Source of the DNA: Bilabrum cf. latius
Taxonomy: Eukaryota
NCBI GenBank assembly: GCA_965178125.1
Contig: OZ237735.1
Span: forward strand, 1,240,001-1,304,000
Length of the DNA: 64,000 nt
Reading direction: 5' to 3'
Part shown: positions 25,897-57,900 of the stretch, one piece after another
Layout: each line of letters opens with the position of its first letter
Position numbering within the stretch: the first letter of the stretch is position 1
The notes under the pieces: generated by a model
The model's input: only the letters and a program-made list of their open reading frames with translations
Told to the model about the DNA's origin: nothing
The model's database searches: none
Position numbers and translations under genes: made by a program

Positions 25897-28800
25897 TCAG
25901 GTGGATGCATCCTCTGGCGGATGAGCGGCCTTGGGCGGTTGCTATGCCAGCTGGACATCGGCAGCAGACCCGGGCTCCACACCGAGTCTCCCTGCTCCGG
26001 CTCCAGTGCCAACGCCTGCAGCAGGAGCCCCGAGCTCTACCCCAGCCATCGATTCCACAACTCCAGCCACCTCAACCGCAGCCCCTGAGGCCAGCCTGCC
26101 TTCTTGCGGCGAGCTGCCAGCCGAGGACCCGCCAGCGAGCAGCCTCAGCGCCACGTCACGGCTGATTTCGTGGATGCTGTGCCGGCGGCCCCACTGGCTG
26201 GGCTTGCCTCTCCGCAGCGAGGGGGGCAGCTTCTCCATGCGGCGGCGCCAGCGAGCCAGCGCGCGACGGGCGAGGGCTGAAGGGGCCGGTTTCTTGGGCT
26301 TTCTCTGCGGTCGAACGAGACCGGCGCGGTGGGGCACCACAACGGAACCGCTCCGGGACAGTCCCACCCTCTTCCTCGCTGCCTGTATCACCACATCGGC
26401 CAAGCTGGGGGTTTTCCTGGCCAGTCCACTTCCGTTCCGAGGCGTACTGGCTGACCTTGCCGTGCCCTGAAGTGGCTTACTGCCTGCTTCACTGCCAGCG
26501 CCGACCCCATCGCGTGTGGATGTATGCCCACCACTACTCCCAGCACCACCTGACGACGCACTCAAAGCAGTTGGTATGGACTCCCCAGCGCCACTAGATG
26601 CAGCAGCTACCGACCCCGGCATGCCACCTCCTGCCAATTCAGCCTCCGATGTGGTGGCCATGTCCGAGTACCAGAACCCTTCCGCCATCCAATCGATCTC
26701 GTCTTCTTCCCCATCCTCATCCGCCGCTTCGCCGCCCAGAGCAGCTCCGAGCACGCCCGCCAGCCCTTCGTCAATGCCAGATATGCGCTTGTCCTGGGAT
26801 GCTTTTCCATGAGAACCCGGTGTGGGAACCTGCACGAGGTCCGCGACACTGTCTCGCACCTCGGCAACGTCGTCACACGAATCGGCTGACCCGCTGTTAC
26901 TGGGGGAGTGAGGCGCAGCTCGATTCCAGCCCGCATCTGCATCGGCCCACCGAGAAGAGGAGACGCCAGACACGACGCCTGGCTGCACGGTTCCCTCTGT
27001 GACCGCGTGGTGCTAGCCCTGGCGAGACTGAGTCGTCTACTGAGAGCCGTGCGAGTCGGTATCCCTGCTATCGACTCTGCCACCCCTGCTGCCCCCGCGC
27101 CCGAGAAGCAAGGTGGGCGGCTTGTACTCGGGCTCGCGTGGTTCCTCTGCTGGCTTTGGCGGAGCCATGAACAGCGAGGGCGCCTTGTACTCCGACTGGG
27201 GCGCAGGGGCCGGTGCGGGAGGCAGAAAGAGGGAAGGCGCCTTGTATTCACCTGAGGCGGGAGGACCAGGGACTGGCTTCAGCGCGGCTGTCACTTCCGA
27301 GCTGGTCGCGCCTCTGCCAGTGGATGCCGCAGCCCAGTCGTACGGGCCTCGGCTTGTCATGGCAGCAGAGGTCGGACCTTGACGGAGTGGCACATGCGGA
27401 TGGTTCGGAGGGGCGGGGGGGAACTGGACCGGCTGCACTGCAGGAGCCGCGGCGGTGCTGGCAACCGCCGTCTGCTCTGATTTCTCCCCTGGCGGCCCGG
27501 CCGGCCCGTACCCTCGTTTCCTCCACACAGCCAGCTTGGCCAGTGTCACCCGCGGGGGATTCGAGGCATCCAGTAGCTCGGGATACTCTCGCATGGTCAG
27601 GCTGTTCTGCCTTTTCCTGCTGGCAGCACCAGGTGCTGCACCTGTATTCGGATCTGCGCCCGACTGGTCGTCCCTCTGTGCAGATCCAGCCGAAGGCAGC
27701 AGACCGAGGGGCCTCACAGCGATAGTCTTTGGGTTGAGGGGCAGGATCTGCCTGGCCAGCCTGATGTCATCGTCCGTTAGGATGCCAGCCTAAAGCAGGG
27801 TAAGCTCGAACGCTTGCAGCTGCCGAAAAAATCCCAAGTTGGGCGAGGCCCCGGGGCGCGCAGTCTTGAGCACCAGGAAGGCCTCGCGGAGTGTCAGCCG
27901 CCGCGTGCGCATCAGCAGCGCGGTGCACACCGTGGCCGACCGACTCAGACCAGCGACACAGTGCACGAGCAGCGGCACGGCCGTGGCCATGCCTTCCTGC
28001 GCGCCCGCATCAGCAGAAGCACCCTCTCCTACGCTCGCGTCGCTGCTGGCACCCACGCTACCGGCTCTGTCTGCCCGCCTGCCCTGCCGTCGCCCATCGC
28101 CGGATTGCTCGCGCAAGAGGCCCTGGGCGCCCACGGTGGGTAGCCCGCCCCACGACCGACTCCGCTGGCCGGACCGCTGCAGGCGCCTCGGAGGTCCGAG
28201 GTCAGTTGACGGTGCCTCCTTCTGGTGGTATTTGCTTCGCAGTGCTCCCGCCTTTGGTGAGGATAGCTCGCCGCTGGATGACCCACGCCCTGGGCTTCCC
28301 CTCGGGCTTGCATCGTCATCGTCATCGTCATCGTTGTAGTCCTCCACGACCCGGACGTCGTCAAACTGAAGTTCGCCGCGCATGCCGTGCGTCTACGATC
28401 GTCCCCGCACAATGGCACTGGCTGAGGAAGTCGGAGGAAGCTAAGGCGATGCACCCAGCTACTCGTCACGATGATTTAAGTCATCGTCAGGGCAGGCCAT
28501 CGCTGGCGACCCGCTGCTTTCTTCACTATCGTGCTGCATGGCGAGCAAAGCATCGTGCCTCCTAGTCCTCTCCTTCTCGGGGTCCAGCAGCACGACCACC
28601 CTGGGGGCTCCTGCACGGATGGCCTTGCCCCTGAAGTCGCTCTGGCACTGGTTGGAGCTGCCGCTGCCGTACAACAGAGCTTCATTTCGGCTAGGCTGCG
28701 GCACGGCTGCACCAGGACTAGCAGCTGCAACCAAGGCGGAGCCCTTGGCCTCTACAGACTCGTGCTGATCTACGTCACCGTCAGTCTCGGCGGCACGGTT

Positions 28801-31335
28801 TGCAACGGCGTCGCTTTGGGCCTCCCCCTACCTGCCAGTTGCGTCATGCACGCCCTCACTAGCACCAATCGGGGTGGACATCACAACCGCTGGACCGGTG
28901 GTGATGTGGTAGATGCCAGAACCTTCGCTGCCGTCTGATGTTGCGACTGAGAGCATGGAAAGGTCGGACATGCGGTTGGGCCGCGATTCGTGCGCTCCGC
29001 CCTCGCGCCCCGCATCGCGCTTATTGCTGTCGCTCAAGCCGCGCACCAGCGGGGTGTGCTCGTCGTCCACATCGCTACCGCTTCCATCCTTCTCCTCCTC
29101 CTCCTCCTCCTCCTCGTCATCATCAGCCCCGCCCTCCTCGCCCTCCGAGTCATCGCCATCTCGCAGAGAACCCCCGGCGAGCAGGCTGTCCAGCAACGAG
29201 TGAGGCGCCGACTCGGGCTGCTTCGGCTGCTGTAGGTGCTACGAGCTGGCGGGACTCTCCTGGTTGCCTGCACTCGTCCCCTCTGTCGCCGCAGACATGG
29301 ACGCTGCCGCCACTGCGGAGGCCGACAGGGGATAATCCAGTTCCTCTTCGGTGTCCTGGCCGGCGGTGCCATCAGCTGCACTGCCAGCCAGCTCAGCAGG
29401 CGTCGAGACTCCCGTGGAATCAAAAGCATCGCTGTCGTGAGTCTGTGTCGTGGCTAAAGTCGCATCTGTTCCACGTCGGCTGACGTGGTGGCGAGGCCCC
29501 TCCCGTGTCCGACCAGGTGCAGCCAGGCCGCTCTGTGCGGCAGGCCGTCGCGCCTGCCTTCGCCTCGTGGCTGCCGCGCTGCGCTCGCTTGCACCTCCAA
29601 CTGGCAGCTCTTTAAGCCCACAGGCCGACGAGGAAGGGGCTTTCGCGTCAGACAGGCTCGCGAAACGGTAAAAGTACGGGTCGGCCGAAGAAGCGAATCC
29701 GAGATCCTGAGTGGGCACGTCGTGCGCGGAGACAAGCAGCACGTCGATGCTGCACCCGCGGGGCGGACGCACGTCCGTCGTCACGTTGATAACGCGCTGA
29801 ATGCCACGTGCCTCGAGCGCGGGCACATTATGCGCGGCCCGCTTGTCGCCGATGTACAGCCCTTCGCACACCCTGACTGGCAGCCCAGTGACAAGCTCGA
29901 TGCCAGCGCGGCGCTGCAGGTCCTGGGGAACACGAAGCAGCGGGTTGCGTTCCAGTTCAAGGACAAGGAGCCCCTAAAGATCCGCAAGCGCGTCGGGAAG
30001 CCTCTTGAGGTCATTGTCATTCGCTTTGAGCGTGGCAAGGCCGGTCAGCCCGCTGACAGTCGGCAGGATTTCCGACACCTTGCACCCTGAGATGTCGACG
30101 TACTGCAGCAGAGGCAGTTCTAGGCAGCCGTTGTTCCACTCAGCGCCGTCTCTGTCCCCATCGAAGTACGCGCACTCCCTCCCTCCCCGCTCACTCTGGC
30201 TTGCTGACCCCACCATCACCTTCCTTCGTCTGCTGAGCAGCCATGCAGGAGCCACGGGGGGGAATACTGATATCACGTTCTGTCTCCAGCGGGAGCTGCG
30301 ACCCCCCCGAGAATGCCTCGAGCTGACCGAAGCCGACCTGCCTCTCTCCCTCCCTAACCCAAGCCCTCGCCCACCTGCCCCCCCGGTCCCTCCGCCGCCT
30401 GCCAGAGCGTGCGAGGATGAGGACGACATGGTGCTATCGAAGGGCAGGAGCCCTCTACCAGACACGTTGTGGCCCCCATAGACATGAATTTGCGTCCCTG
30501 GCACTGGCGGGGCAGGCAGCTCGGAGGGGTGGAACGCGGTCTGCCTGTCGGAGTAGGCAGTGAGCAAATCGTCTCCGAGGTGCGGACGGACCTTGCGGGG
30601 CCGGGGTCCCCGCTCCCAGAACCCTGCACCAAGAGGGTTGCATTGAAGTTCTAGTCTTCGGAGGGATGTGCATGCCCACAACTCACCGGGCAGCTCTCTA
30701 AGGTTGTTGCTGCTGGCGTTCAGCGCCCCCAGCCGAGGCAGCAAGAACAGTTCCCGTGGCAGCTGCTCCAGCATGTTTCGGGACAAGTCCAGCGTCCGTA
30801 GCTATGCTTGCAACATAAATTGTGGCAGTACTGGGGCAGCAGACAGATGCGTAGAGGCCCGGTGCTCAGTCCTAGGAGAGAGCAGATTTATAGCCGAGAC
30901 TCCACCATGGTGCAGAGAGAGTTCCGAGGTAGGCAACGCACTGCTGGGCAAGCTGAGGCGAGCACTGCTAGACTAAATGTCTATCTCTTGCAAACCACAC
31001 CCGTCGAGACGAAGTTTCCTGAGGGACGTATTCTGACTGAGAACGTCCCTCAGCGTCCCAGGAGTAACACCATCACTAGAGCTGCGCAACGGCGATTAGG
31101 AGATAGTTAACAAGACCCTCAATAGTGGGCGAGACAAGTCGTACGTGCGATATCACGGACACATAGGAGCTGTTTAGCTGTTTTCGACACGTAAAGCGGC
31201 TCACTTGCACAGCGAGACAATGTCAGGCTTGCCATCGCCGCTTAGTTGAGCGCCGTTGGCAAATAACGACCGGCCCTGGTTGGGCAGAGCTAAACCATAC
31301 TCGAACATGTAACCATCCTAAATACCTGTTGCCAT
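25897..31335 (-). CDS. Leucine-rich-repeat + dual-specificity protein phosphatase; TAG read as Gln
   Basis: Seven co-framed ORFs joined by ~13 TAG. LRRs include LDLSRNMLEQLP and LPDALADL*GLLVLELERNPL. DSP motifs LYIGD..A, VINVT, HCVAGLSRSAT, PNLGFFRQL. Intron 31082-31204 (GTGAGC..CTAAT..GCAG); TGA 25897. Start 31308 or 31335. Confidence 0.85.
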
Positions 31336-36820: not shown

Positions 36821-36944
36821 TGTGCATGCATTTTTTTAAATTACCTTTGAAGTTGCGATGCTTTGCTTGTCTACTGGAACACTGCCAGCTCCGGGTCCGT
36901 TGGGGCGTCCAGGTGCAACTCCGTGCGTGGCACATCAATCGCTC

Positions 36945-39900
36945 ATGTTTCAGGGCGGAGCAGAAGTAAAACAACTGAGAAATGAGAATACACAGCTACG
37001 CAGGCAATTGGTTCACTTGTCCGAAGAGCTCATTGATTCGGGAGAGCAAATAAACAGATTGAAGCGGAAGGTCCGAGCTCTTGCCGGAGCAGGAGATGCA
37101 TCACCAAAGTCGCCCGCTGGAGTATCCCCAACCAAGGTGGCAGAGAACGATGCTGACCCTGGGGCCAAAGAATCTTCGAAGCTAATCAAGGCGCTGGAGC
37201 GGCGCGTCGCAGAGCTCGAGGCCGAGTCGGCACGAGCGCATCAAATAGCAACCAAGCAATCGGAAGACTTGATTTAGGCAGATCGGCGGTCACAAAGTGC
37301 ATCAGCCCAGATTCGAGAGCTAATGGCGCTGCTTGCCGAGGTTGGCGTCGACCCTTCGTCGGGTACGAAGACAAGTGATGGCGAAGCTAGCAGCAGCAAT
37401 GCCCCAGAGCGGATTGCTGTCGCCAGTTAGAAGCGCATTGGCGCAAACAGAGTGCCAAATTGCAGCCTATCAGACCGTCCCACCACTGTGCGGATCCAGC
37501 GGGATTCTCCACTTGCTGCTGCGTAGCTCAGTCACGCCAGCGACCGCCTCGGGGACTTCCTTTCATTCGCAGAGCGGAGCGCGGAGGCGCTCGAGCAATA
37601 CGTATCAGCAGGCGAATAGTTTTCTCGCGCTGGTGCACAGGTATCGACTCTTTTGCGCACCTCTCGCTACCAGCCGTGGGCGGCAGAGGTGCCGGGCTTG
37701 TTCGAGGGCCTGGCGGCGGTGGCAAAGTTGCAGCAGGACCAGAGCAGCTACTTGGAAGTGATGGTTCAGTCCATCAGATAGGCGTACTGCGAGCCCATCG
37801 TGGCGTTTGCGCAGGCCCGGGCCAGCAGAGTCCAGAAAGCGGTGGCAGCTGCGGAGCAGGCCAGGCAGGAGGCCAGCAGCGCGACCTGGAGCTTCCTGTG
37901 CACCTCGTCGAGCGCGGGTCACGATGCCGCGAGGAAGGCTGAGGAGGAAGCAGCGGCTGCGACAAGGCGGGCAGAAGCGGCTCGATTTGACGCCGTCCGT
38001 TTGCTGAACGAGGCCGAGCTGAGCAAGCGAGCCGAGCTTGGGGAGAGGCTGTGCGGGGTGTACTACGCTTTGAGGGCGTACGGGCAGCAGATGCACCTGT
38101 CCGTCTCGAGACTGGAGGCGACCACTCGCGCCCTGCAAGCAGCTGCGGCACAGGCTTCGACTCTGGAGAAGGAGCGGGCCGTGGTGTGGCGGCAGCTCGC
38201 AGCCGCCATGCATTCCGAGCTTGGCAGGGCGTTCACGACGTCGGGACAGGCGCGGGCGGGCGTGACAGAAAGAAGGAGGATGCCAGGTGCGGTGCAGGGG
38301 AAAGGGAAGAACGGCTCGGGCAAGGGAGGGGAGGCGGGGGTGGGCGATGGGGAGGCCGCAGGCAAGCCGCGCATGACTGGCGGCATCGGGGTTGGGGACG
38401 GTGCGGGCTTGGACGAGGCGGGCAGTGACATTCCCGCTGGCCCGCTCGACCTGGTGAATGAGGTGGTCGAGTCAGTCGCGGCGAGAGTCAGGGAGCAATT
38501 GGAGGAGGATCAGGGGGCTGCTGCCTCATCCGAGCAGCCGATCAGCAGCGGAAGAGGGCAAGGCCGCGGGCCGGACGCCACGAGCGGTGTACCTGCCAGT
38601 GCCACCGCTGCCGTTGCTCCCAATGTGACACCGCTCAGCCCCGGGCTGACGAGGGCAGCCGTTGGCTCGCTGGCCTCTGCTGTCGCGTCGAAGCCGCAGC
38701 CGGCGGCAGGAGCGACAGAGGGCGCCAGAGGGCCAGACCAAGGGGCAGAGAAGAGCGACTCTGCGGGGTCAGCACCCGGGGGGCCCGCCTCTGGATCCGG
38801 GTCTAGCGCTGCACACGCCAGCGACTCGATGACGGGGGGCGACGCAAGCCGGGCCGATTTGGGCGGCTGGCTGTACAAGCGGAGCAGTCGTCCGATCGGC
38901 GTGAGGAGGGCGGATTGGCAGCGGCGGTGGTTCTTCGTGGACAAGGGTGCGCTGTGGTACGTGAGGGGAGAGAAGGACTTGAACCCCGTCAAGGTGCTGG
39001 ACATGGTGGTGGGGAATGTGCGGAGCAGCGATGCGGCAGACGCGTCGTCTCCTGCGCACGACGTGCGGTTCTGCTTCGAGATTCGCACGCCCGGCGAGAG
39101 GGTGTTCTACCTTCAGGCGCCGTCAGCGAGAGAGAGGCAGAAATGGGTCAGCGGGCTGCGGAGGGAGTCCGAGAAACAGCTGCTCGCGGCGAAGCGGGCG
39201 AGCACATCGGGGGGATCAGGCGCCGGTGGTGGCCCCGCTGGCGACGGCAGCGACGGCTCCGTGGCTGCTGGCCAGGGACAGTCCGCCTCTGGGTCCGGGG
39301 GCTCTGGCGGTGACACGGCGAGCGGACGGGGCAACTTGGCGAACGATCCCCGCGTGAGGGCGATCCAGGAAGCAAACCCGAGGTGCTGCGATTGCGGGGC
39401 CGAGCGGCCGGACTGGTGCAGCCTCAACCTGGGTGTGCTGCTGTGCATCGCGTGCAGCGGCGTGCATCGGTCGCTGGGGACTCACCTAAGCAAGGTGCGG
39501 TCGCTGACCCTGGATGCTCTTGAACCCAGGGTGCTAGAGGTGCTAGAGGCCGTGGGAAACGATGCATTCAACGCCGTGTGGGAGGGTAGCACGCAGGAAG
39601 GGTGGCAAAGGCCCGGGCCCAAGGCGCCGAGGGAGGAGCGGGAGCGTTTCATTCGGGCCAAGTACGAGTGGAAGGGGTTCGTGAACGTTCCTTCGCTAAG
39701 CCGATCGATCGCGCGGAGGGCCACAGGAGGTGATCCCAGCGGTGGAAGCGGGTTGGAAGAAGGGGCGGAGAGCGAGGGCGAGGGGGAGGGGGACGGTGGC
39801 GGTGACGGTGACGGTGACGGTGACCTGAGTGGTGGTGCTGGGCCTGGTGCTGCAAGGTGGGGAGGAGCCGGGGGCAGCGCGGGTGATGGAGAGGAAAAAG

Positions 39901-40262
39901 GGGGAGGCGATGGGTCGTCTGGAGCCAAGAGCTCTGCCGCCGTGGCTCAGGACTAGAAGAAGCTGGCCAAGTCGGCACTGGCGGTGGCAGCCAGAGCATC
40001 GGGCGACGGCGATCTGCAGGCATTGCTGGAGTGCGCTGCTGCCGGGGCTGATTTCGAGCAGCCCGTTGAAATTGTTGAGGGGCAAAGCGCCACAACTGCG
40101 TTGCACGAGGCAGCGAGGGGCGGGCATGCGGTTGTCGCGGAGTGGCTGCTGCAGAACGGGGCCAGAGCTGACGTGCCGGATGGGGAGGGCAGACTGCCCG
40201 CGGCGGTGTGCGAGTCCGCGGGACATGCCGATCTAGCAGCGATGATACGAGCAAGACAGTAA
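36945..40262 (+). CDS. ACAP/AGD-like Arf GTPase-activating protein (coiled coil-BAR-PH-ArfGAP-ankyrin); TAG read as Gln
   Basis: One frame with TAG at 37275, 37428, 37524, 37617, 37779, 39954. BAR start DSPLAAA*L; PH GWLYKRS..WQRRWF..RFCFEI..LQA.S..ER.KW; Arf[32 protein letters not shown]; ankyrin TALHEAA; ends TAA. Confidence 0.92.
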
Positions 40263-40483
40263 TACGTTTATTGCATTCATGTTATACTCGTGTGCCCAGT
40301 TGACTGCCAGCGAATGAGGCGTTTGCAAAATGTGTTGCGACCAGCCTTCTAGCAGCACGCCGGCTTCCTGTTTTTGCGAGGCGCCGCGAGCGTTCCGGCC
40401 GACAGGTTCCGCACGACGCAGCGCATCGACCCAGTCGCTTCACGTGACCGGCTCGGAGGCGCGCAGTCCGCGATATCTGTACA

Positions 40484-43400
40484 ATGTCCTCGATACCGCC
40501 CGCCATACGAGCTGCAACAGCGACTGGACCCCCGCGAGTGGGTCTGCGAGCGCTTTATGACCGTAGATCGGCTGGTGAGCACGAGCTCACGATCACCGCA
40601 GGACAAAAGCTGCTAGGCTGGAAAGAGATTAAGAGCCCCGGGGCTGACACTGGGTGGTGGGTTTGTTTGCCCGCTGATGCTGCATCTGCGCACCCGCCGT
40701 CTCTGGTTCCTGCCAATTTCGTGCGAAGGCGGAGGGCAGCATCGGCATCGAGACCGAAGCGCCCCCGTGGGACGCGGAAGGCCGCCAAAGAGGGGAGCAG
40801 CAGTCCCGGCGCCTCGCCAAGTCTAAAGTCAACAGCAAGTGGCGCGAGGCTGGTTGGTGTTAAGCCTCGGTTTGATGCCAATCCGCTGAGCCTGACACCA
40901 AAGGCGAGCGGCAGCCCCTCTGCTGCTTCGCCAGTCCCATCGAGCGGCGGCAGCACACCGCACGATTTCGGACACTCGGGATTCGATGCGAGAAGGCGAA
41001 ATGTCCCGCGGGGTATCCGCACCAACACATCGCTTGCCCAGGTGAGCGGCGCTCCGTCCCCCGGCAAGCCCAAGTCCGATCCAAAGCAGGCAGCCGCGGA
41101 GCGCGAGGCCCGCAAGAAAAGAGAGCAGGAACGCCAAACCGCTCTGCGGTATGGAATCTGGGCCCACAATCTGGCGCTCCTCGCCGCTCTATATTGCGGC
41201 GGATTCGGCGTACCGGCCGTCGTGTGGGCGAGATCCCGGCGCGAGCTGGCGAGCACTCATTCGAGCGAATTCCTGGGGTACTTTTGCGTCCTCGTGGGCG
41301 TGGGCATGCTGGCGCTAGAGCTGCTCACGGCGTATCGCATCCCTTTGTTCGCCTCGGAAGCCTGGCGCCCCTTGGTCCGATCGATCGCGAGCACCTGCGG
41401 CTGCGGCGACTCTGCAGCGGCCGACGAGGCGCACGAGGCGAGGGGCGCTGCAGCCACCGCCGCGGGCGGGGCCGACGGCTCTACATCCGATTCCGAGTCG
41501 CTGCCCTGCGTGACGCAGTGCCTGCACCTCCCGTGGCGCGGCGCGCTGTACCTGGTGCTGGGGCTGCCGCTTCTGAGCCGGGCCTCCACGGCCCTGGCTG
41601 GGATTGCAGTGGTGGGGGCCGGTGCGGTGTACTGCACTGCGGTGCTGCGGGGAGAGGTCGGCGACGGGCGCTCGACGAAGAGGAAGCTGCCTAGCCGCGG
41701 AAACGGCAACTCATGGACCGCGTTCTTCGGGTGCGACTGCTGTTGCTGCCTGCCGGGGGAGGAGTCGGCAGGAGCAGAGGAGGCCGGGGTGGACCCCGCG
41801 TGCTGCGAGCGGTGCCAGATCTGGGCCCTGCGCCAGGCCGAATCGGGAGAGGTGAGAGAGACTGCAGCAAAAAACAAAGAAGAGACCAAGACCGCCTGCC
41901 TCCCCCGCTCTAGCAGAACCATCACCAGGTGCCAGCTAATGGCTCCGTCCGCTCAAAATGATCCCGGCTACCCCTCGCATTCTTCCCTGTTTTCCTTTCT
42001 TATTGCCTCCGATGATTCATGGTCGCAGGTCGGCAAGTGGGCCCTGCTGGCAGCCTACGTCGTGGCAAACGTCGTGTTCGGGAGCTACTTGCTCGCTGTG
42101 TGGACCACTGCGGTGCAGGAGCAGCACGACGAGTATGACGAGTGCATCCTCGAGATCAACCCGGCCAACCCAGGGCAGGGGAACATCTGCACCGCCCCTC
42201 TGACGTTTTGGGCCCCCTGGGCCAAGATGTGCGGCGGGCTGCTCAACCTGAACTGCTCCATCATGCTGCTCCCCGTCCTCAAGGGATTCATCCGGGCTCT
42301 CAACAATTGCCACTGCGGCACGACCTCACTGGCCTCGCTGCTGCCGCTGAGGAAGCACATCACCTTCCACAGGTACGTGGCTCTGGTCGTGTTCGTGCTC
42401 GCGTCGGTGCACACGTTCGCGCATTTCATGAACTACGCGTACAGGCCGGACGAGACTTTGGACACCTTCCCAGCTACGGAGGACCCCACCACGGATGCCA
42501 GGGAACAACCGTGGTTCGGTACCGTGAAGACCGCACCGTGGTACACCGGCGCCGCCATCTGCGTGGCTATGCTGGTCATCTACAGCGGCGCTGTGACCGC
42601 GGTGAGGAGGTCGGCCTACTGGCTGTTCTGGGCCTGCCACCACGCCTTTGCCCTCTTCTACGTGTGCCTGATCTTCCACGGCCCCGTGGCCATTTGGTGG
42701 TGCGGCGTGCCACTGCTGCTGTACGCGGCTGAGAGGCTGTGGCGAGTGGCAAGGGGCCAGAAGGTGGTGTACCTCAGGGCCGTGCGCTGGCTCGACCCCG
42801 TGCTCGCGCTCGAGTTCCAGCCAGAGGACAAGGACGCCTTCTAGTTCGTGGAGGGGCAGTACCTTTATCTCTCCGTGCCCGCGGTGGAGGGGGACAGCTA
42901 CCACCCGTTCACCATCAGCTCGTCCGTCGGAGACAGGGACCAGCTGGGCTACATCACCTGCCACATCAGGGTGCATCCGGGAGGCTGGACGGAGCGTGTC
43001 AAGGACTACTTGGTGCAGTTCAACCCCCGCCAGGAGTTCCCGTTGGTGCTGCACCGGTACGACGAGAGCGGGCGGCGGCAGGTGGGCAAGGCCACCGGTC
43101 CCGACGGTCTGCCCATCCTGCGCGTGGACGGGTGCTTTTCGGCTCCGAGTCAGCATTACTGCGCGTACGACGCTGCGCTGGTGGTGGGCGCGGGGATCGG
43201 CGTGACCCCGCTGGCCTCCATCCTCAGGGGCGTGCTCCTGTACCGCTGGAAGAGGGGCCATCGGCCGCAGCACCTTCACGTCGCGTGGGTTGTAAGGCAG
43301 TCGGAGGTGGCTGCGTTCCAGTGGTTCGTGCAGGCCCTGGCGCAGGTCGAGGCGGAAAGGGCCCGTGACCTTGCGGCTGGCAACGTGAACGACGAGAACT

Positions 43401-43825
43401 TCATCGAGATCCACCTGTTCGTGACTCGGGTCAACAAGCAGCTGCCGGAGAGCAAGTGGCCGAAGCTGCTGGAGGCCGCCAAGCTGGGCTCGGATCAGGC
43501 GGACCACGCCCCCTTCCGGCCGGAGCGGCTGCTCCGCGAGATGGTGCTCCCTTCGCAGCCGAGTGCTCGCTTCCAGGAGGTCATGCAGGCGCCCGACAGG
43601 GCCACCAACCGGCTGCAGGACGTGTACGTCTGGGACGGGAGGCCGCCTTGGGAGCACGTGGTGGGTAGAGTATCGGGTGTGAGCGTGCGGGGGGCAGGGC
43701 ACAAGCAGGTGGGCATAACCTTTTGCGGTGCAGCCCCGATTGCGAAGGCGCTGAAGGAGCAAGCAACCTTGTACAGCGACTTCTCGAGGGGAGTGCAGTT
43801 CACCCTGCACAAGGAAATCTTCTGA
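40484..43825 (+). CDS. NOX: NADPH oxidase with N-terminal SH3 and p22phox-like domains fused to a NOX2/gp91-like core
   Basis: SH3 (ALYD..ELT..GWW..LVPANFV) at 40538-40723; p22phox-like TM segment at 41141-41656; heme His pairs FHRYVALVVFVLASVHTFAH and HHAF..IFHG; FAD motif HPFTISS; NADPH motifs GAGIGVTP, FCG, HKEIF. One TAG at 42842 (DAF*FVEGQY); probable intron 41852-42028; ends TGA. Confidence 0.9.
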
Positions 43826-44026
43826 TGCGCGCGCGCATATGCTCTGGAGGCATGCTTTAGATTTCAATCGAATGGTCCGTGCAATTGTAGTTTTCTCCAG
43901 TGTGTCGAAGTTTTACTGCCTCATCTTTAAAATTATCGGCATGGAGTCTGTGTTGGTCGCAAGAACCATTTTCGATAGCCGGACGACTACGATCCGCGCA
44001 CATAGAACTGCAGTGATTGAGGTTCC

Positions 44027-45157
44027 ATGGCTTAGCTTGCCGAGGCTATCTCTACATTTTTCCATGCTCCCAAGTCATCGGAGGATGGCCATCCCCATCC
44101 TGGTGGAACCGAAACATCCGGCTCGGGCGAGTCTGGGACAGCGGTTGGACCTGATTCGCCCGTTTCTACCCAGTCAGGGGCGGCTCAGCAAGAAGAAACA
44201 GCAGAATACGGACTAAGCATACACGCTGATACAATTGACGCGGATTGCTTGGATGCATCCTCCCACAGTACCCGAGAAGCTCCTAGTGCAACTGCATCGA
44301 GGTCACTGCGTGCGAAGCGAGCAGCGGCCGCAGAAGCACGCCAGAAGGGACCGTAGCAAGGCAGCAAGCCAGCCATTGCACATGTTCCGTTACCAACTAT
44401 GCCTGAACACGCGAAAATTTTGGATTAGAGCCGGGAGGGCTAGGATATTGGTGGTAGTTCGACCTCGCGTCCGAGATTGCCAGCACAGGATTCCAAGCAA
44501 GCTCGGCGTCCTCCGCACCGATTTTTGGCCGGCCTACGAGTGATTCAGGGAACTTGGAGATTCCGATGATTGTTTGGCATGAGAGAATGGCTATTCTCTC
44601 GCTATTGCAACCGAAACCGCGTGCTTCCTGGAAACGGGCAGTACTCGTGTTTTGGCCGAACTTGCTTGCTATGACTAGCTTTCTTGGATACTCAGGTGAG
44701 AGATCTTAAAGAATGTATTATGCCTGAAGCGCATGCTGTGATTGAGATTGTTAGTTCTGCTTCGCTCCCAGCATCATTGGGATTGGGTGTGCTGCGTCTG
44801 CATGGGTGATTCTACCACAATTATTTCAGAAGGGTTGAACCATTGCACACGCTCATCTCGCAGATTCCTATGGAAACGATGATGCCAATACCCATGCTAA
44901 AGTTGCATGGGGCTTCGTGCTTTCTTGGTGTTGTCATTTGGCAGTGGACAGGCGGTGCGATCCATTGCAGATGCCGCACTGCTTTTGTAGTTCCAGCCGG
45001 GATGGTGGGGACAACTATGCTTGCTTCTTGTGTTTTAGTGTGTATGACTTGCTACAACTGCTCGATATAGACATCGCTCGTAGCATTTCCGACCAAGGAG
45101 CGACCCCGGCCGTAGACACTCTGCCTGAATTTTTGTTGGAGTAGGGCATCAACATGA
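44027..45157 (+). CDS. Probable intron-containing hypothetical membrane protein, exon structure unresolved
   Basis: ATG GCT TAG CTT at 44027 opens ~175 codons interrupted only by TAG. Downstream hydrophobic segments (VLVFWPNLLAMTSFLGYS; FLGVVIWQW..MLASCVLVCM) and a GTGAGA..CCAG intron-like stretch at ~44696-44771 lie in other frames. Confidence 0.35.
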
Positions 45158-45352
45158 TATTCAGCCGTGCTTGCTGGGTCCGTACTAAACCCGTCAAACT
45201 CCTGGCGCGGTGCGCATTCCACTGTGTTCGGCCCAAGTGCCAAATCACGGACAGAAAGCGACTTGGCTTTGGCCTGCCCGCGGGTCCCGCCACCGGTCGC
45301 GCAGACCCTCCCTCGAAAAACCTCGGCGGCAGTGCGCCCACGAGCGGCAAGA

Positions 45353-48280
45353 TCACTGCCTGCCCACCGAATTGTTTTCATCGTCCTAAGATATCCGAAG
45401 CGAGTACTCGTCCAGCTGGGACTGAGTCGGCTCGGAGGGCGAGCCGGCCAAGAGGTCTTGCCCAGCGGAAGACTTGGGAAACGCGAGCACGTCGCGCAGA
45501 GACGGCGCATCCGCAAGCAGAGCGACCATTCGATCCAAGCCAAACGCTATGCCGGCATGCGGAGGAGCGCCGTGGCGAAGAGCCCGGAGCAAGTGCTCGA
45601 AAGAGCCCACAAGCTCCTCGGACAGTCCGAGAGTCTCCCGCATCTGGTGCTCCTGCCTGTCCGCGTCGTGAATCCTCACGCTGCCGCCGCCGAGCTCCCA
45701 TCCGTTTGCGACCAAATCGTACGCACGGGCACGGCAGGCGAGCATGCTCCTCTTCCTGCCCCTCCAGAGCTCCCAGGCTTGCTCCTCGAACCGCCGCGCG
45801 CCCTCCTCGTCCCCCCCCTCCCTCGCCGCGCGCGACAACTCCAGCAGCTCGTTCCGCTGGGTCTGATATACCTTTGTTGCTTCTGGTCCTAGCGTGGCGG
45901 CCCAGTCCTCCTCAGTGGGCGAGGTGAATGGGTGATGCGCCGCGGAGAGCCCGAAGGTCTCCGGGGGCGCGCCAGGCCCAGACTTGCCACCGGCCTGTGC
46001 CGCAGCTTCCCCTCCGTCCACCCCTCCGCTTGGATGATTGCTTTCTTCTTTGCCCTCTTCGCCTTCTTCGCTTGCTTCCAGCAGCGGGAAGTCGACCACC
46101 CAGAAGGGATCGATCGCGTCACGGCGCAGCAGCGCAGGCTCGCCGCCCTCTTGTGCTCGCACCACTGTCTCGGGAGCAAACCGACCCACATTCTCTGCCA
46201 CCGGCTCCTCCACGCCCAGTTTGAGTCCTGACTACGCCATGCTGGTGGCAAGCTGCAGACGGGCGGCCCCTAGGACCCGGCACGGATCCTCGCCCTCCCC
46301 CGCTGCCACCAGCAGGAGGTCTCCCGGTCGCAATTCACCGGCACCATGCTCGCTCACCAGCCGAGCAATAGCCTGCCTGCGCTCTATTCCAGGGAACAAC
46401 TTGGCCCCGGGACCCGACCACTGCCAGTCGAGCTCCCCAGACACCCTTTCCTCCTCCAATCCATCCCCTTCCACCCGGATCGCGACCAGCGCGCACCGGC
46501 CGGCAGGGGGCCCGGCCGCGGCTCTGACTTCCGCCAGCATCTTGTCCAGGGGTTTGCGGCCAAGCAACGCCGACAGCCCCGGGGCAACCACTGCTCTCAC
46601 GCTCGGCACGCCTGCCTGGATCCCGGCCGCCTCGCGCGGGTCACCAACCTTGAAAACAGGCGGGGTGGGGTGCACCCCGAGGCGAGCAGCTGCGTGGCTC
46701 GGCAGGCGGGAGAGCAACTCGGAATCCATATCCAGTTCGCTTTTGCTTTCTCCTGCGGATTGCAGGGAAGGGGATGCTTTATCATTTTGCATGCGAGCGA
46801 GCCCATCGCTCTCCCGCCACCCGCACGCCTTTCGGAGCAGTTGCTCCAAGCTGCCCAAGCTCGCCTCCTGCCGGCCCCAATCCCGAAACAGCTCGGGCAA
46901 GATCGCAGATGAAACGTCAGCGATGGGCATTCCCACCCTCCGGTCGGGTCTGTCCGTCCCATATCGCGACACGCAATGGGCGTACGTCAGCCGAGGCAGC
47001 CTGCCCTTGGACGGCACCTCGACGGCCGCCTGCCGCCGAGGCAGGCCCGGCTTGAAATGCCGCAATTCTCCCGCCGCCGCCTCGGAAGCCGCGTTGCAGA
47101 CGGCCGCAAACGTGGCCTCGGCCACCGCCATGACGCCCTCCTCCGCCTCGCCCGACAGCTCGATGTCGATCTGCGTGAACTCGGGCTGGCGGTCCGCCCT
47201 TCCACCTTCGTCCCTGTAGCACCTCGCCACCTGGAAGTAGCCCTCCAGGCCGCCCACCATCAGCAGCTGCTTGTACTGCTGCGGGCTCTGCGGGAGGGCA
47301 TAGAACTGCCCCCTCCGGCGGGAGGGCACGAGGAACTCGCGGGCGCCCTCTGGGGTGCTGCGGAAGAGCGTGGGCGTCTCGACCTCGATCAGCCTGCAGC
47401 GCTCCACGAGACACCGGCGGGCCGCGTGCGTGATGGCGGAGCGGAGTCGCAGGTTCCGCTGCATGAGCGGGCGCCGCAGGTCCAGGTACCGAAACTGCAT
47501 GCGGGTGGATTCGTCGGCGCTTGCCGCGGCTTTGGTTCTTGGCTTACCTCCGCCCTTGCCCTTCCTCTTGCCCGTACCCCCAATGCTGCTAGGTACACTA
47601 GCATCTGGACGTTGCAAATCGGTGGACGCCGCAAGCAGACCCTTCATGGCAGCTGCGCCGGCGTCACCGCCCGCTCCTGAACTTGGACGCTAGCCATCGA
47701 ACGCAACCTCATTCGCCACATTGATAGGGGGCCTCGCCTCGCACATATTGTCGACTTTCACTTGTTCGGGGTGCAGCTCAACGGCACCTGTCGCCATGTC
47801 ATGGTTCTGCATGTCCTTCGCTCTGTGCTTCACTGTGCCCACCACTTGCACGAAACTCTCGGTAGGCGTTCCCTCTAGAATCGCTACAAGTTCGGCTGCG
47901 ATAATGCAGTTATTTATAATTAAAACATATTGCGATAGCTAGTATCCGTGTTTGTTGCGCTACAAGCTCAGTAGACGACCTACCGCTGCAAGCGAAGGTG
48001 GCTCACGAGCTGTTGAGGTGTCCACGGTCATTTGAACGCACCCACTGGCGTCCCGAAGCAATACAAACATCAGTGGGCCGAATTTTCTCTTGCTTTGAAT
48101 CCATCCGCGAACGTGAATCTTCCATTCCATTGGGGCTACAACCTCTCCACATCCTCGAGGTACGACTCTGTGGGTTCCAGAAGCCACCAAGGTCGAGCAG
48201 GAGCGCCTAGTTACGCAGACAAGGAGCGACTGCCAAAGCTACAATGCTACTTTGTTCGATCTGTAGCCTAGACGGCGCAT
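45353..48280 (-). CDS. DARS2: Aspartyl-tRNA synthetase, mitochondrial/bacterial type; TAG read as Gln
   Basis: Motifs GWIQSKRKFG.L.FV.LRD..G.VQ, RYLDLRR, EVETPTL..STPEGAREFLVP, ALPQSPQQYKQLLM, RCYRDE..RADRQPEFTQID, HHPFT, YDLVANGWELGGGSVRIH, GAPPHAGIAFGLDR, FPK. TAG at 48239, 47690, 46232, 45386; intron ~47896-47979; ends TGA 45353. Confidence 0.93.
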
Positions 48281-48331
48281 GCTAAGCGATGTAGAACACG
48301 CGATTGGCTTTGGCGCACCAAACCGGAACTA

Positions 48332-54975: not shown

Positions 54976-57900
54976 TCAGATCCCAGGCCCCCCTCCTCCC
55001 GCCACGCTCGACCTGAGCTCAGGGGGCACGTACACGCCTGCATCATCCAGCAGGGTGAGCATGCCAACCGCACTCTGCTGCAGGTTTGCCAGCCTCTCTG
55101 TGATGGTGAGCAGCTGTCGATCGTAGGCCTGCTACAGCCGGGCCGCCTCCTGTTTAGCCTCCGCTGCTTCTTGCTGCGCGGAGACCAGCAGCTCGACGTG
55201 ACGCTGCAGGACGGCTTTCGACTCGCCCAGCTGCGTGCGGAGCACCTCTATCTCGGTGTGACGAGTGCATCCGCTCCGAGACGAGACGCTGCCGGAGCGG
55301 CTTCGAGTGGGGCTGCCCACTCCGCTGGGCTCGGATCCGTTTCGCAGCGCTCGTCCCGAAGGCTGGCCAGATACGGGGTCTGCCTTTACTTCCTCCTCAA
55401 TCGCAAGATCTGCCTCGCTACCCAGGCCAGTGACATGCTCGCCTGCATCTCCGGGGGAGGATGCGCGGGAGCTTGGTGCCGCCGGGCTGTTGTCCACCGT
55501 GATCGGCCTCAGGAGGCCCAGGGCCCTCGCTGCTTCCCTCACCTCCGCAGGCAGAGGGGCGATCGCACGTAGACCCGCTGCCGTCCCGCCTCCCGGTGCC
55601 GTGCCTCCCAAAAATACAGTGCCGACTGTTGCTTCAGTTGCTGCGGCCGCTGCGGCAGCCTCGAGTAGGCTAGACTTGGACTCTTTCGTGCTGCGAGCTG
55701 CATCTCCGTTGAGCACAGCGCCGACAGCAGCGGCATGGACGGTTTGCTCTCGACTCAGAAGCAGCTTGAAGGCACGCCGTGACAGAAAGGCTCCTTCCTG
55801 ACCTCGTGGTCTCTGCATAGTAGCGCGAGGCCGCCGCTGCTTGGACTGCTTCGCCATCGCCTGCTGGCTGAGCATTGGCGAGATTGATGTTACCCCGATG
55901 CTGGTCACCTAGCCGCAGGCATGCTTCGGCTAGCCCTGTTCTCTGGCTTGTTCAAGCTGCTACAGGCGGCCCACAGCTTCGTCCCGCTCGGCCCTGATAC
56001 TCCGCATCTCTAGTCTAGCCTAGCGCAGCCCATCTCTGAGCCCTGGCACCTCGCCAAGTGCCCGACGCGCGGCACCGAGATCCACCCTGCTTCTCTTTCC
56101 AGCCCTACGAGCTGCAACACGGTTATAGGCCACGGCTGCTGGGTGCATAGACTGCGTTGCTCCGGCAATGAATCGCGCACCCGCTGCTTCTGCGCGCAGT
56201 GCCCCGGTCTGCAACGCCAAATCGATTGCGTTGCTTGCCATTCTAGGCTACCTCTGGAAATCTCTGGCATGCGTACTGCTGGATACCACGACAAGGCCTG
56301 GTTCAGCCACGTGATCTGTTTCGACCCTTCGTGGCAGCGCACACGACAGGCGCGTGTCAAGGGCTCTGCCTGACTGCTGCTCCCACTGCACGTTGGATGC
56401 ACCGCCCGCCGGGGCAGATGCGCTATTGACTTCGCCCCGACCAAGAAATAGCCTCCTTTCTACTTTTCCAATGGAAGCTGGAGTGGCTATCGCAGGATCA
56501 GAACCGTCAGTCGCACTACCCCTTGCCGAAGGCACCTTAATTGGTGGGGTGAGCTACGTATTCGCCGCGAAAGAGGCTACTTCATCAGCGTGAGTGGCAT
56601 CAGATCCTTTGTTGTCAGGCTGACCGTTTCTTGGCACTTCCAACTGCTCCTCGTCACTATTATGCCCATAGCTGACTCGTTCACTATCAGGTGCACCAGC
56701 CAGCAGTAAAGCTAATTGCTCATCAGACCCAGTGGCAAGCGAGAGGCTTGCTGCCTCCTATTCTGTTGGCATGCGAGATTGCGGCGGGGTGCCTGCCCAT
56801 CGGCCCACTGTGGTGCTCAGCACATCTACTGAGCGTTTCAATTGCTGTCCAAGCTTCCATTCAGCTTGCTACTGCTCTAGGCCGGCATTCACCGCCTCGG
56901 TAGTCGTGTCGCCCCTAATTGCTGCGGCCCCGGGATTCAATTGGCAGGCTACCATTGAAGCAAGCCTCTGCGTGGCGGGGTGATCCAGCTGCAGGAGACT
57001 CGCCGCAGCTCCTGCCTTGGCGGCTAGCTGCAGAGCTACGGCGGCACTCTTGGCTACAGTGGCACAGGCAGCGACTGCACTCTGCAATTGGTCGCTAGCT
57101 CCAGCTTGACGTTCATCGCTGTCGCCCGCGTCCCGGCCGCCTGCAGCAGAGGCTCCTGATCGACGGCTCAGGGAAGATCGGCGACCCCTCCACGTGCCAA
57201 CGTCGGCCGAATTCATGTCTGTGCCTCGTGAAAGCGATTCCAGCAGCTTGGTGGCGTGCTCCGCAGCTCGAAGGACTGCATGCGCCCTGGCGCCATCTTC
57301 AGCACCGAGCGCCGTGGCGAGCTCCGGCATAGCGGCCGCGTCCGAGGAACGCCGGGCAGGTTTGGGTGTGTGTCCCAGCTCGCTTCGTTCGTCTGCTTGC
57401 AGCCCTTGCGCGGATCTCCACTGCCTCAAAGCTGAGCGCCACACGGCTGCATGGGACGAGATGGCAGATTGCACGCTGCCAGCGCACCGCTGCATTTTCT
57501 CCGCGACTATCGCTGCAGCTTGCTTCGATCCCGTAGGACTCATGGAGCCTGCCATCCAAAGCATTGCGGCCTCCAACCCGTTTGATGTGCGTTCTGTGCT
57601 CGGTGTGACATCACCCCGTGCGACGCCAGGTCGCAGCGCAGCCTAGTTGCCGCTGCCAGAGGCAACCTCACCCCCACAACGCCTTGGCACAAGCTCTGCG
57701 CAGCCTAGGAGACCAGCCTCTCGTACGCTGCTCAGCAGCTGCGACAAAGAGGTGTAGAGAGATTCTAGCTCGTCGGCCGTGTCCAGCCAGGCGTCCGCTC
57801 CAGCCCGGAGCGCCGAGAGACAGGCTCCCGTGCCGAGTGGGGCGGCGGCAGCGTCGCTGGAACCACCGCCATGCCCGTCCGCCGATATCCCCCCTACTCG

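Follow-up and report, generated by a model that had tools for sequence, protein, structure and literature searches.

The DNA between positions 40484 and 43825 (plus strand) of the window, by which we mean the whole 64-kb stretch that was analysed, is one spliced gene. Judged by its sequence, the product carries a p22phox-like membrane module and an NADPH oxidase (NOX) in one chain, which is a real new architecture within the NOX family; the enzymatic activity is predicted. We consider it likely that this one spliced gene encodes a single-chain flavocytochrome composed of a divergent SH3 domain, a linker, a p22phox-homologous module, a Cys-rich linker and a NOX that lacks EF-hands.

In animals, p22phox and NOX are separate proteins. 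NOX1-4 require p22phox, whose loss leads to chronic granulomatous disease. The origin and timing of the NOX-p22phox partnership are still unsettled. In its relevant sections, a 2022 survey restricts p22phox, p47phox and p67phox to opisthokonts (PMC9421330). That the two are naturally fused in a distant lineage of protists is Rosetta-stone evidence for an ancient origin of the pairing or for more than one origin. The conservation of E53, R90, Y121 and of an interface on helices 1 and 4 hints at what is essential to the pairing. A single-chain cytochrome b558 would also be handy for expression, for structural work and for testing p22 function without co-expression. The features of the gene are as follows.

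40484..43825, plus strand: complete coding region of the fusion (open reading frame, sequence, run contigs)
40484..41851 and 42029..43822, plus strand: exon 1, with the ATG at 40484, and exon 2, followed by the TGA stop at 43823-43825
40538..40729, plus strand: divergent SH3-like domain, aa 19-82 (aligned with the SH3 domains of relatives)
40730..41140, plus strand: low-complexity Ser/Pro/basic linker, probably disordered (pLDDT below 50, variable in relatives)
41141..41656, plus strand: p22phox-like four-helix membrane module, aa 220-391 (profile, fold, complex model)
41657..41851, plus strand: Cys-rich cytosolic linker (…FFGCDCCCCLPGEE…ACCERC…) from p22-like helix 4 to NOX helix 1 (sequence)
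41852..42028, plus strand: spliceosomal intron of 177 nt, GT..AG, in phase, 0 in-frame stops (contig joints, relatives)
42029..42763, plus strand: NOX six-helix haem domain (Pfam Ferric_reduct at aa 618-729, NOX5/NOX2 alignments)
42800..43027, plus strand: FAD-binding domain with the HPFT motif H807-T810 (Pfam FAD_binding_8 at aa 773-848, E 4.9e-7)
42842..42844, plus strand: in-frame TAG, codon 787, read as sense (sequence, four runs, column of the relatives)
43166..43765, plus strand: NADPH-binding domain (Pfam NAD_binding_6 at aa 895-1094, E 2e-12)

Gene structure and the reading of TAG

The stretches that the original prediction quoted as SH3-like, p22phox-like and NOX core are all present where it had placed them and lie in one frame. 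Its single reading frame stands when TAG is taken as sense; under the standard code it does not, and the TAG at 42842-42844 had been overlooked. The segment 41852-42028 had been described as a linker that keeps the frame whether spliced or not. This is correct for a stop-free segment of 177 nt, which is now seen to be an intron. Its 59 codons have no counterpart in any of the nine relatives (alignment A1), and P0019, a gene call in a relative with 98% identity, departs from the window protein exactly at the intron. A joint that skips these 177 nt is present in one contig each of the public runs X1, X2 and X3. The X1 contig of 3263 nt corresponds to 40463-41849 plus 42027-43902, and the X2 contig of 3245 nt to 40452-41849 plus 42027-43873. 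Both start just upstream of the ATG and end just beyond the TGA, and the flanking intergenic DNA is left uncovered by the X1-X3 contigs. The DNA run X7 is colinear with the window and retains the intron. Because the kinds of runs X1-X3 are guesses ('RNA?'; X1 also 'probably DNA'), the spliced contigs are strong, though not formal, proof of one mRNA. As between one product and two separate mRNAs, single gene-sized spliced contigs cover all modules, in line with the single polypeptide first proposed. The spliced product is 1054 aa long with TAG counted as a residue. In the other frames and on the minus strand beneath the gene, none of the four open reading frames tested matched a Pfam family at E<=0.01, and a search of Rfam over 39000-45500 gave no match.

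Throughout the window, TAG serves as a sense codon. Read in this way, the stretch contains 12 open reading frames of at least 800 aa, compared with 0 under the standard code and 1 each when TAA or TGA is made sense instead. The neighbouring BAR-PH-ArfGAP-ANK gene, AspRS and D2HGDH all have conserved domains that run on past TAG. The single TAG of Sua5 falls in an unaligned stretch and is uninformative on the decoded residue. In the fused gene, the codon sits inside the FAD-binding domain (...EDKDAF*FVEGQY...), contigs of four runs carry only TAG at this position with no variant letter, and the residues that follow it are the best-conserved part of the protein. The corresponding column in the nine relatives contains Q (3), K (4), T (1) and A (1). 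TAG is probably decoded as glutamine. In the nuclear genome, TAG may stand for an amino acid, probably glutamine, while TAA and TGA do not. ARAGORN found no tRNA in the 64-kb window, and the searched literature yielded no report of a TAG-only code variant in a stramenopile-like organism. The fused gene is readable only because TAG is an ordinary codon in this organism. As a result of such a code, standard pipelines chop the organism's genes, and the public gene calls match this expectation.

The p22phox-like module and its packing on the NOX helices

The membrane block at 41141-41656 contains the p22phox-like motifs YGIWAHNLALLAA, LGYFCVLVGVGMLALE and WRGALYLVLGLP...AVLRGE in order. It terminates in the motif RGE, and a long, ill-conserved loop (aa ~290-347) separates helices 2 and 3. 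The window block alone matches no Pfam family at E<=10, PF05038 included, and a phmmer search of the PDB with aa 203-456 returned no p22phox, only chance matches at E>=0.36. The Pfam match to Cytochrom_B558a (PF05038) by which the original prediction was to be checked did not materialise at the curated level. Five of the 17 family members match PF05038 (best E 0.0063), all below the gathering cut-off, which is reached by 0 of 17. No other Pfam family is matched by as many members; CD20 and COPI_assoc are matched weakly by three of the 17 each.

Searches with the family and with the fold both lead to p22phox. A profile of the 17 sequences (A2) was compared with the PDB (177,635 distinct sequences). 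Its three best matches were all 'Cytochrome b-245 light chain', with E-values from 2.4e-5 to 2.7e-5 (i-E per domain 6e-4; p22 residues 32-132), and the next PDB match had an E-value of 0.05. An AF2 model of the block (pLDDT 82.1, pTM 0.73) was searched against 350,542 PDB chains with Foldseek. Ranks 1-3 were p22phox (8gz3_A, 7u8g_B and 8kei_A) with a probability of 1.00 and modest E-values of 0.014-0.041, a TM-score by target length of 0.62-0.65, 16-18% identity and an rmsd of ~10 A over 179 columns. Rank 4 followed at E 0.58 and a probability of 0.21. The resemblance to p22phox first proposed from motifs is borne out by family profile and by fold, with p22phox as the top PDB match of both.

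The HMMER alignment is limited to helices 2-4, and helix 1 is matched by the fold alone. Within it, p22 residues E53, R90, P100, T107, Y121, R127, G128 and E129 are identical in the window protein. According to the structural part of PMC9711523, p22phox contains a buried polar network, N11-E53-R90-H94-Y121, of which E53, R90, H94 and Y121 are hotspots of chronic granulomatous disease. E279, R352 and Y383 of the window protein correspond to E53, R90 and Y121. H94 faces a Tyr (Y356) and is His in three of the 17 members. N11 lies outside the HMMER alignment; in the alignment of the earlier note, the conserved Asn of the family is one residue off it. The columns of E53 and E129 hold E in all 17 members, that of R90 holds R in 10 of 17, and that of Y121 holds Y in 6 of 17. 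Taken as sequence and model evidence, these results support homology of the four-helix module to p22phox.

A model of the NOX helices (250 aa) in complex with the block, computed independently of the family alignments, scored 0.70, a value that may reflect the model's memory of the solved NOX2-p22phox complex and that shows likeness, not binding; the best of three controls scored 0.01. Of 78 solved complexes, 51 reach the mark used for this score, compared with 2 of 108 mismatched pairs. Contacts agreed by at least 92% among runs, with a partner pLDDT of at least 66. They involve block residues 17-47 and 162-171, which are the first and last helix, and NOX residues 126-148 and 175-203, which span the last part of helix 3, helix 4, loop D and the first part of helix 5. 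As the interface description of Liu et al. reports for the solved complex, M1 and M4 of p22 contact M3, M4 and M5 of NOX2. The modelled contacts fall on the helices used in that structure and suggest that the p22-like module lies against NOX helices 3-5 by way of its first and fourth helix. For the full-length protein, the AF2 model is poor (pLDDT 60.6, pTM 0.43). On the modelled arrangement, the module would pack in cis on the NOX helices and may stabilise and mature the haem domain, as free p22phox does for NOX1-4.

The catalytic core, the linkers and the N-terminal domain

By its domains and motifs, the C-terminal ~540 aa is a complete NOX without EF-hands, as first described. Three Pfam domains score above their curated cut-offs: Ferric_reduct (PF01794) at 47.6 bits (cut-off 28), FAD_binding_8 (PF08022) at 30.3 (22) and NAD_binding_6 (PF08030) at 47.9 (22.2). 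A Pfam search of the whole protein found no EF-hand. The best PDB matches of the core are NOX5 (1.2e-36) and NOX2 (1.3e-32), with DUOX1 also among the best. In unspliced numbering, the bis-His pairs H629/H643 and H719/H732 align with H101/H115 and H209/H222 of NOX2 and with NOX5, and none of the four histidines varies among the 10 members. The same invariance applies to H647, T688 and G689, which match His-119 and Thr-178/Gly-179 of NOX2, the residues that mark the ROS-forming members in the family comparison of Zhang 2013 (PMC3591440). The NADPH domain contains GAGIGVTP (902-909) and FCG (1080-1082), and the chain ends in ...HKEIF. Both the FAD and the NADPH domain include columns that are invariant in the family alignment. 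These intact motifs suggest that electrons would pass from NADPH through FAD and two haems to O2 outside, with superoxide as the expected product. In translation of the mRNA, TAG would count as an amino-acid codon.

After the RGE motif (aa 391) there is no proline-rich tail, and the Cys-rich linker leads straight into NOX helix 1. The linker (pLDDT <50) stands where p22phox has its proline-rich tail. Its Cys cluster is kept in the close relatives P0012, P0019 and P0020, and a CC pair is present in P0007-P0010. With the C-terminal end of the p22-like module joined to NOX helix 1, the p47phox-docking tail would have been lost.

The N-terminal SH3 domain of the original prediction is retained in part. 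The motifs ALY-, -GWW- and -VPANF- sit where SH3 domains have ALYDY, WW and PxNY, and the ligand-site residues A23-L24-Y25, W58-W59 and P76-x-N78-F79 are present. Own evidence from the window copy is weak. Pfam found no SH3 in the window protein at E<=10, a PDB phmmer search gave three SH3 chains at E 0.09-0.63, and the N-terminal 101 aa, compared with P0006 and P0003 by BLASTP, gave non-significant alignments in the correct SH3 register (E 8.6 and 2.0). The full-length AF2 model places strands at 43-51, 54-63 and 73-76 with pLDDT 51-63. Pfam SH3_9, SH3_1 and SH3_2 are significant at the aligned position in 7 of 10 full-length members (best E 1.4e-16), the window copy not being one of the seven. 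Mainly because of this alignment, aa 19-82 is read as an SH3 domain, and the divergent stretch is probably one. The linker that follows (aa 83-203, pLDDT <50) differs in length and sequence between relatives.

The original prediction had counted the SH3 domain as an adaptor module of the fusion. The domain does not take the part of the p47phox SH3 domains, because their target, the proline-rich tail of p22phox, is missing from the p22-like module. Docking may instead have moved to the N-terminus, which carries SH3 in this subfamily and proline-rich stretches in a sister subfamily of the P0015-P0017 type. Such an N-terminal module would presumably recruit some cytosolic regulator.

Distribution, competing readings and known systems

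Nine relatives with 38-54% identity have the same order of SH3, block and NOX. The order of a p22-like module followed by NOX occurs in these nine and in six further relatives or fragments. When the block was scanned against 1.84 billion representatives, seven matches were obtained, and each either runs into NOX helix 1 or is itself a cut gene call. P0010 is, by its source label, a complete 903-aa open reading frame with the same module order. For close relatives, the publicly available gene calls are just pieces (P0012, 267 aa; P0019, 315 aa; P0020, 169 aa). They stop at the intron or begin at internal codons and are therefore gene-calling artefacts. Among proteins of 68-354 aa, profile A2 found only P0019, P0012 and P0020 and no named p22phox; since just 8000 word-sharing candidates were scored, this search is no evidence for the absence of free forms. 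A word-indexed search with aa 1-470 found nothing at near lengths. Relatives of p22phox slip below Pfam cut-offs, and their distribution is therefore probably underestimated. In the sections of the NOX-evolution literature that were searched, no description of a p22phox-NOX fusion was found. The view that the catalytic and partner modules form a fusion outside the described NOX subfamilies is in keeping with this literature and with the recurrence of the order in relatives.

The four-helix block could be an unrelated or convergent N-terminal membrane extension, as in fungal FRE, plant FRO or DUOX M0, with a likeness to p22phox that any small helical bundle might show. N-terminally fused transmembrane regions of unassigned function are indeed noted for FRE and ppFRE in the corresponding part of Zhang 2013 (PMC3591440), and the block's own sequence lacks a p22phox match. 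The weak CD20 and COPI_assoc matches are to four-helix families, and the best Foldseek E-value is just 0.014. This reading is unlikely, however. p22phox comes first in two independent whole-PDB searches, by profile and by fold, and no other membrane protein comes close, the next matches lying at E 0.05 and probability 0.21, respectively. The terminal RGE and residues of the buried polar network of p22 match in register, and the helices at the modelled interface are those found in the solved structure.

It is highly unlikely that the enzyme is a ferric or cupric metalloreductase, with the fused module serving localisation only. The closest PDB matches are NOX5, NOX2 and DUOX1 and the three residues that mark ROS formation are invariant, although the Pfam domains are common to FRE and NOX and NOX activity is a prediction here. 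An artefact, whether from the merging of two neighbours or from a pseudogene cut at codon 787, is barely credible. The standard code does end the frame at 42842, but with TAG as sense the long open reading frames of the window rise from none to 12, conserved domains span TAG in BAR-PH-ArfGAP-ANK, AspRS and D2HGDH, and the best-conserved part of the protein lies beyond the codon. The short public calls of P0012, P0019 and P0020, which could be taken in favour of an artefact, are explained by gene calling at the intron or at internal starts. Single contigs cover both halves, and P0010 has the identical order in one complete frame.

The reading as a single-chain flavocytochrome can be extended, tentatively and with some doubt. 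The NOX-p22phox pairing may predate opisthokonts and amoebozoans, and one lineage, with a nuclear genome in which only TAG has become sense, may have frozen it as a natural single-chain cytochrome b558 with rewired N-terminal docking. Frozen in one polypeptide, the pair would let the enzyme assemble with no need of a separate partner in the membrane.

The closest structural counterpart is human flavocytochrome b558 (NOX2-p22phox; 8gz3, 7u8g and 8kei). It shares the haem His, FAD and NADPH motifs with the window protein, its four-helix partner has matching E53, R90, Y121 and RGE positions, and its solved contact helices (1 and 4 of the partner, 3-5 of NOX) are those predicted here. The human subunits are separate, whereas in the window protein the partner is fused N-terminally to NOX through the Cys-rich linker. 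Human p22phox has a proline-rich p47phox-docking tail; the window protein lacks the tail and carries an SH3-like domain on the chain, and the loop between helices 2 and 3 of its module is much longer. According to the passages on NOX4 in PMC9421330 and PMC3591440, this enzyme needs p22phox only and is constitutively active. In function, this minimal pair of p22 and a NOX without EF-hands is the closest analogy to an enzyme that would be 'self-contained'. NOX4 and p22phox come from separate genes, in contrast to the fused window protein, and the SH3 of the latter suggests regulation.

In fungi, NoxD/Pro41 is a p22phox homologue and partner of NoxA (Lacaze et al. 2015, as cited in PMC9421330). 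Set alongside by description, NoxD resembles the window module as a distant p22phox relative that was long missed by ordinary searches and as a partner of an EF-hand-less NOX, but it is a stand-alone protein, whereas the p22-like module here is fused to NOX. The Discussion of Liu et al. notes that p22 occupies the site of DUOX1 M0. This is an extra N-terminal helix in cis that carries regulatory modules, and the window fusion puts a whole p22-like bundle at the same site. DUOX1 M0 is a single helix without p22 homology, and DUOX is under the control of EF-hands and DUOXA. A protist NOX with SH3 on the catalytic chain is found in Naegleria gruberi (architecture M17 in the domain survey of Zhang 2013, PMC3591440). 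As depicted in that survey, its SH3 lies inside the C-terminal dehydrogenase/NADPH domain and there is no fused p22-like module, whereas the SH3 of the window protein is N-terminal and precedes the p22-like module.

The p22phox-like module and the NOX core

The fused gene is real and looks expressed. Its product is a NOX to which a p22phox homologue is fused, and the family also has an SH3 domain at the N-terminus. Its main features are as follows.

40484-43825, + strand: fused gene (SH3-like domain, linker, p22phox-like block, Cys-rich linker, NOX core)
41700-41810, + strand: juxtamembrane cysteine cluster FFGCDCCCCLPGEE…ACCERC, directly after the last p22-like helix
41852-42028, + strand: intron of 177 nt with GT..AG ends
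42842-42844, + strand: in-frame TAG, mid FAD-binding domain (…EDKDAF-TAG-FVEGQYLYL…)

The block of this protein alone (aa 205-405) returned nothing informative from Pfam or the PDB. The NOX part, used as a query, led to nine relatives (777-1009 aa, 38-54% identity), and the block, run in full against 1.84 billion representatives, yielded seven further matches. In all relatives the block lies immediately 5' of NOX helix 1, or the record is a cut gene call of such a gene. A profile of the resulting 17-sequence alignment was compared with 177,635 distinct PDB sequences, and the best three matches were the three human p22phox depositions (E 2.4e-5, 27.7 bits; best domain i-E 6e-4). An antiporter subunit, unrelated, came next with E 0.05. 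An AlphaFold2 model of the block from the same alignment (pLDDT 82.1, pTM 0.73) gave the three p22phox chains as ranks 1-3 among 350,542 PDB chains in Foldseek (E 0.014-0.041, probability 1.00, TM-score 0.62-0.65 by target length); rank 4 had E 0.58 and probability 0.21. The p22phox likeness in the original prediction is borne out by the family profile and by fold. In the comparison with Pfam Cytochrom_B558a (PF05038) that it proposed, this family matched the most members, 5 of 17, all below its cut-off, and the window's block was unmatched.

The sequence alignment spans p22phox residues 32-132, which are helices 2-4 to the RGE motif, and helix 1 is matched by fold alone. Identities aligned by HMMER pair p22phox E53/R90/P100/T107/Y121/R127/G128/E129 with window E279/R352/P362/T369/Y383/R389/G390/E391, and p22phox H94 stands opposite Y356. 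The columns of E53 and E129 hold Glu in 17/17 members. The R90 column holds Arg in 10/17, the H94 column Tyr in 12/17 and His in 3/17, and the Y121 column Tyr in 6/17. According to excerpts of Liu et al. 2022 (PMC9711523), N11, E53, R90, H94 and Y121 form a buried polar network of p22phox and are CGD hotspots.

The NOX core (aa ~576-1113, unspliced numbering) has Ferric_reduct, FAD_binding_8 and NAD_binding_6 domains above Pfam cut-offs, and Pfam found no EF-hand in the fused protein, so the complete EF-hand-less NOX of the original prediction stands. Its PDB matches are NOX5 (E 1.2e-36), NOX2 (1.3e-32) and DUOX1 (1.4e-23). The haem histidines H629, H643, H719 and H732, the counterparts of NOX2 H119 (H647) and T178-G179 (T688-G689), and HPFT, GAGIGVTP, FCG and the C-terminal Phe show no variation among the ten aligned sequences, the window protein and nine relatives. 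His-119 and Thr-178/Gly-179 separate ROS-forming members from metalloreductases, as stated in a passage of Zhang et al. 2013 (PMC3591440). We infer catalysis by the fused NOX, its dependence on the fused module and a ligand for the SH3 domain.

A complex model of the NOX helices (250 aa from 42029) with the block scored 0.70, and the best of three controls scored 0.01; the mark for this score is one that 51 of 78 solved complexes attain, as do 2 of 108 mismatched pairs. Three runs had at least 92% of contacts in common, with a partner pLDDT of at least 66. The confident predicted contacts involve block residues 17-47 and 162-171, the first and last helices, and NOX residues 126-148 and 175-203, which take in the last part of helix 3 (H643 and H647 included), helix 4, loop D and the beginning of helix 5. 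In the solved complex, M1 and M4 of p22phox bind M3, M4 and M5 of NOX2 (Liu et al. 2022, PMC9711523, in part). The pass may reflect model memory because NOX2-p22phox is already solved; it indicates likeness rather than binding. p22phox has both termini in the cytosol and NOX has its N-terminus there, so about 65 aa of cytosolic linker can bridge the two. The topology of the fusion is consistent.

N-terminal modules and comparison with known enzymes

The N-terminal SH3 domain of the original prediction holds for the family and less clearly for the window copy. It is present in 7 of 10 full-length members (Pfam E down to 1.4e-16), and window aa 19-82 align to it with ALY, WW and P-x-N-F retained. 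Pfam found no SH3 in the window protein itself, the best PDB matches to SH3 chains were at E 0.09-0.63, and BLASTP of its N-terminus against the relatives was not significant. AlphaFold2 predicted beta-strands for the region at pLDDT 51-63. By its sequence the window copy appears divergent, and it is reasonably likely to be a functional SH3 domain. A sister group (P0015-P0017) keeps the p22-like-then-NOX order and lacks the SH3. Its N-termini have proline-rich stretches instead, such as PPPPPP runs or PPLPPKP, so two module types alternate at one position. The helix 1-helix 2 loop of this group is long and Cys-rich.

The fused protein differs from human flavocytochrome b558. There p22phox, a separate subunit, carries a proline-rich tail; the fused protein has the Cys-rich linker in its place, and its docking module now sits at the N-terminus. 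The cysteine cluster is kept in close relatives, and a CC pair in the P0007-P0010 group of relatives. Its juxtamembrane position suggests a candidate S-acylation site; it is also a candidate metal site.

Within the known family of NOX enzymes, the fused gene has a new variant architecture. The searched portions of Zhang 2013 (PMC3591440), Massari 2022 (PMC9421330), Kawahara and Lambeth 2007 (PMC2121648) and Liu 2022 (PMC9711523) contain no mention of a p22phox-NOX fusion, in line with the original prediction, which did not recognise the architecture as a described NOX subfamily. Neither 'fusion' nor 'fused' appears as a word in Massari 2022 or Kawahara 2007. Titles and opening abstract lines on p22phox-like proteins, homologs and orthologs gave no fusion. 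The sole SH3-bearing NOX in the passages of Zhang 2013, the Naegleria-type, differs in having its SH3 within the NADPH domain. An excerpt of Massari 2022 states that p22phox, p47phox and p67phox are opisthokont-restricted. The only named relative here is the EukProt record 'INCI4459'. Its prefix probably denotes Incisomonas marina, a MAST-3 stramenopile.

Gene structure and transcript-like contigs

The motifs quoted in the original prediction were found in the fused gene where it had placed them. Its single reading frame does extend over 40448-43825 (+), with the first ATG at 40484, but only with read-through of the TAG at 42842-42844, which it omitted. It also rightly held that 41852-42028 keeps frame spliced or not (177 nt are 59 codons). 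This segment is a real intron. Its codons are missing from 9/9 aligned relatives, and 41849/41851 is joined to 42027/42029 in one contig each of the public runs X1, X2 and X3. A 33.8-kb contig of X7, a DNA run, follows the window colinearly and retains the intron. The spliced product has 456 + 598 = 1054 aa.

The X1 contig (3263 nt) extends from 40463, 21 nt 5' of the ATG, to 43902, 77 nt beyond the TGA, and the X2 contig (3245 nt) from 40452 (32 nt 5') to 43873 (48 nt beyond). X1-X3 leave 40262-40415 and about 43903-43990 uncovered. Their contigs behave as transcript assemblies, being gene-sized, intron-less and bounded, and the kind of these runs, from two studies, is a guess ('RNA?'; 'probably DNA' for X1). 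The X3 contig (depth 8.7) misses one base at 42533, within the NOX haem domain, that X1, X2 and X7 do not miss; the X3 assembly is probably wrong there. A separate contig in X1-X3 covers 43987-44400 (+), beginning about 160 nt 3' of the NOX stop. The ratio of its word depth to that of the NOX contig is 2.4 to 6.6 (660.8 vs 99.7 in X1, 32.3 vs 13.7 in X2, 51.9 vs 8.7 in X3), and it may be a neighbouring transcript.

TAG as a sense codon and the neighbouring genes

This organism reads TAG as a sense codon. The window has 0 ORFs of at least 800 aa in the standard code and 12 with TAG as sense (longest 2372 aa); reading TAA or TGA as sense gives 1 each. Among the 14 longest ORFs, TAG occurs 0.9-11.5 times per 1000 codons, and the stops are TGA or TAA. 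Examples with TAG are 1-7116(-), 25897-31095(-), 36840-40262(+), 45353-48331(-) and 54976-59055(-). The contigs of X1, X2, X3 and X7 report no alternative letter in 39800-44400, which rules out an assembly error of the window as the source of the TAG in the fused gene. Downstream of this TAG the protein is at its most conserved. Conserved architectures cross TAG in BAR-PH-ArfGAP-ANK, AspRS, D-2-hydroxyglutarate dehydrogenase, DSPc, Na/Ca-exchanger and ankyrin proteins. Window genes with in-frame TAG include the following, of which the last three are housekeeping genes.

36840-40262, + strand: BAR-PH-ArfGAP-ANK gene, ACAP/centaurin-like, upstream neighbour of the fused gene; six TAG, TAA stop
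45353-48331, - strand: aspartyl-tRNA synthetase (AspRS), bacterial/mitochondrial-type; seven TAG
23998-25782, + strand: D-2-hydroxyglutarate dehydrogenase; three TAG, E 4e-111 vs human D2HGDH
60372-61865, - strand: Sua5/TsaC threonylcarbamoyl-AMP synthase; in-frame TAG

At alignable TAG columns of window genes the relatives have Q, K, D or T, and at the NOX-family column Q (3/9), K (4/9), T (1/9) or A (1/9). These residues indicate that the encoded residue is polar; it is probably glutamine, the simplest reading. A literature search found no report of a TAG-only nuclear code in a stramenopile or stramenopile-like organism; Pánek 2017 (PMC5304391) covers codes where UAG and UAA differ.

Standard-code or prokaryote-style gene calling fragments genes of this lineage. 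The public gene calls P0002, P0012, P0019 and P0020, from close relatives, are cut pieces of the fused gene. P0019 has an internal GTG start and reads into the intron. P0012 stops exactly where the window reads CAG (Gln), as would be expected if that relative has TAG at this codon.

In the ACAP/centaurin-like gene, the TAG at 39954-39956 lies between the ArfGAP and ankyrin parts. The AspRS has very long insertions, with 991 aa vs about 600 in PDB relatives. In the translation of an ORF at about 11345-13042 (-), to which no Pfam family matched, a stretch of about 50 aa is repeated in tandem almost exactly (…ARTVISARDF.PCGENGFFEALVLASNALAPVYLPESRAIGFCTVGATY… twice); this is probably a tandem repeat of non-coding DNA.
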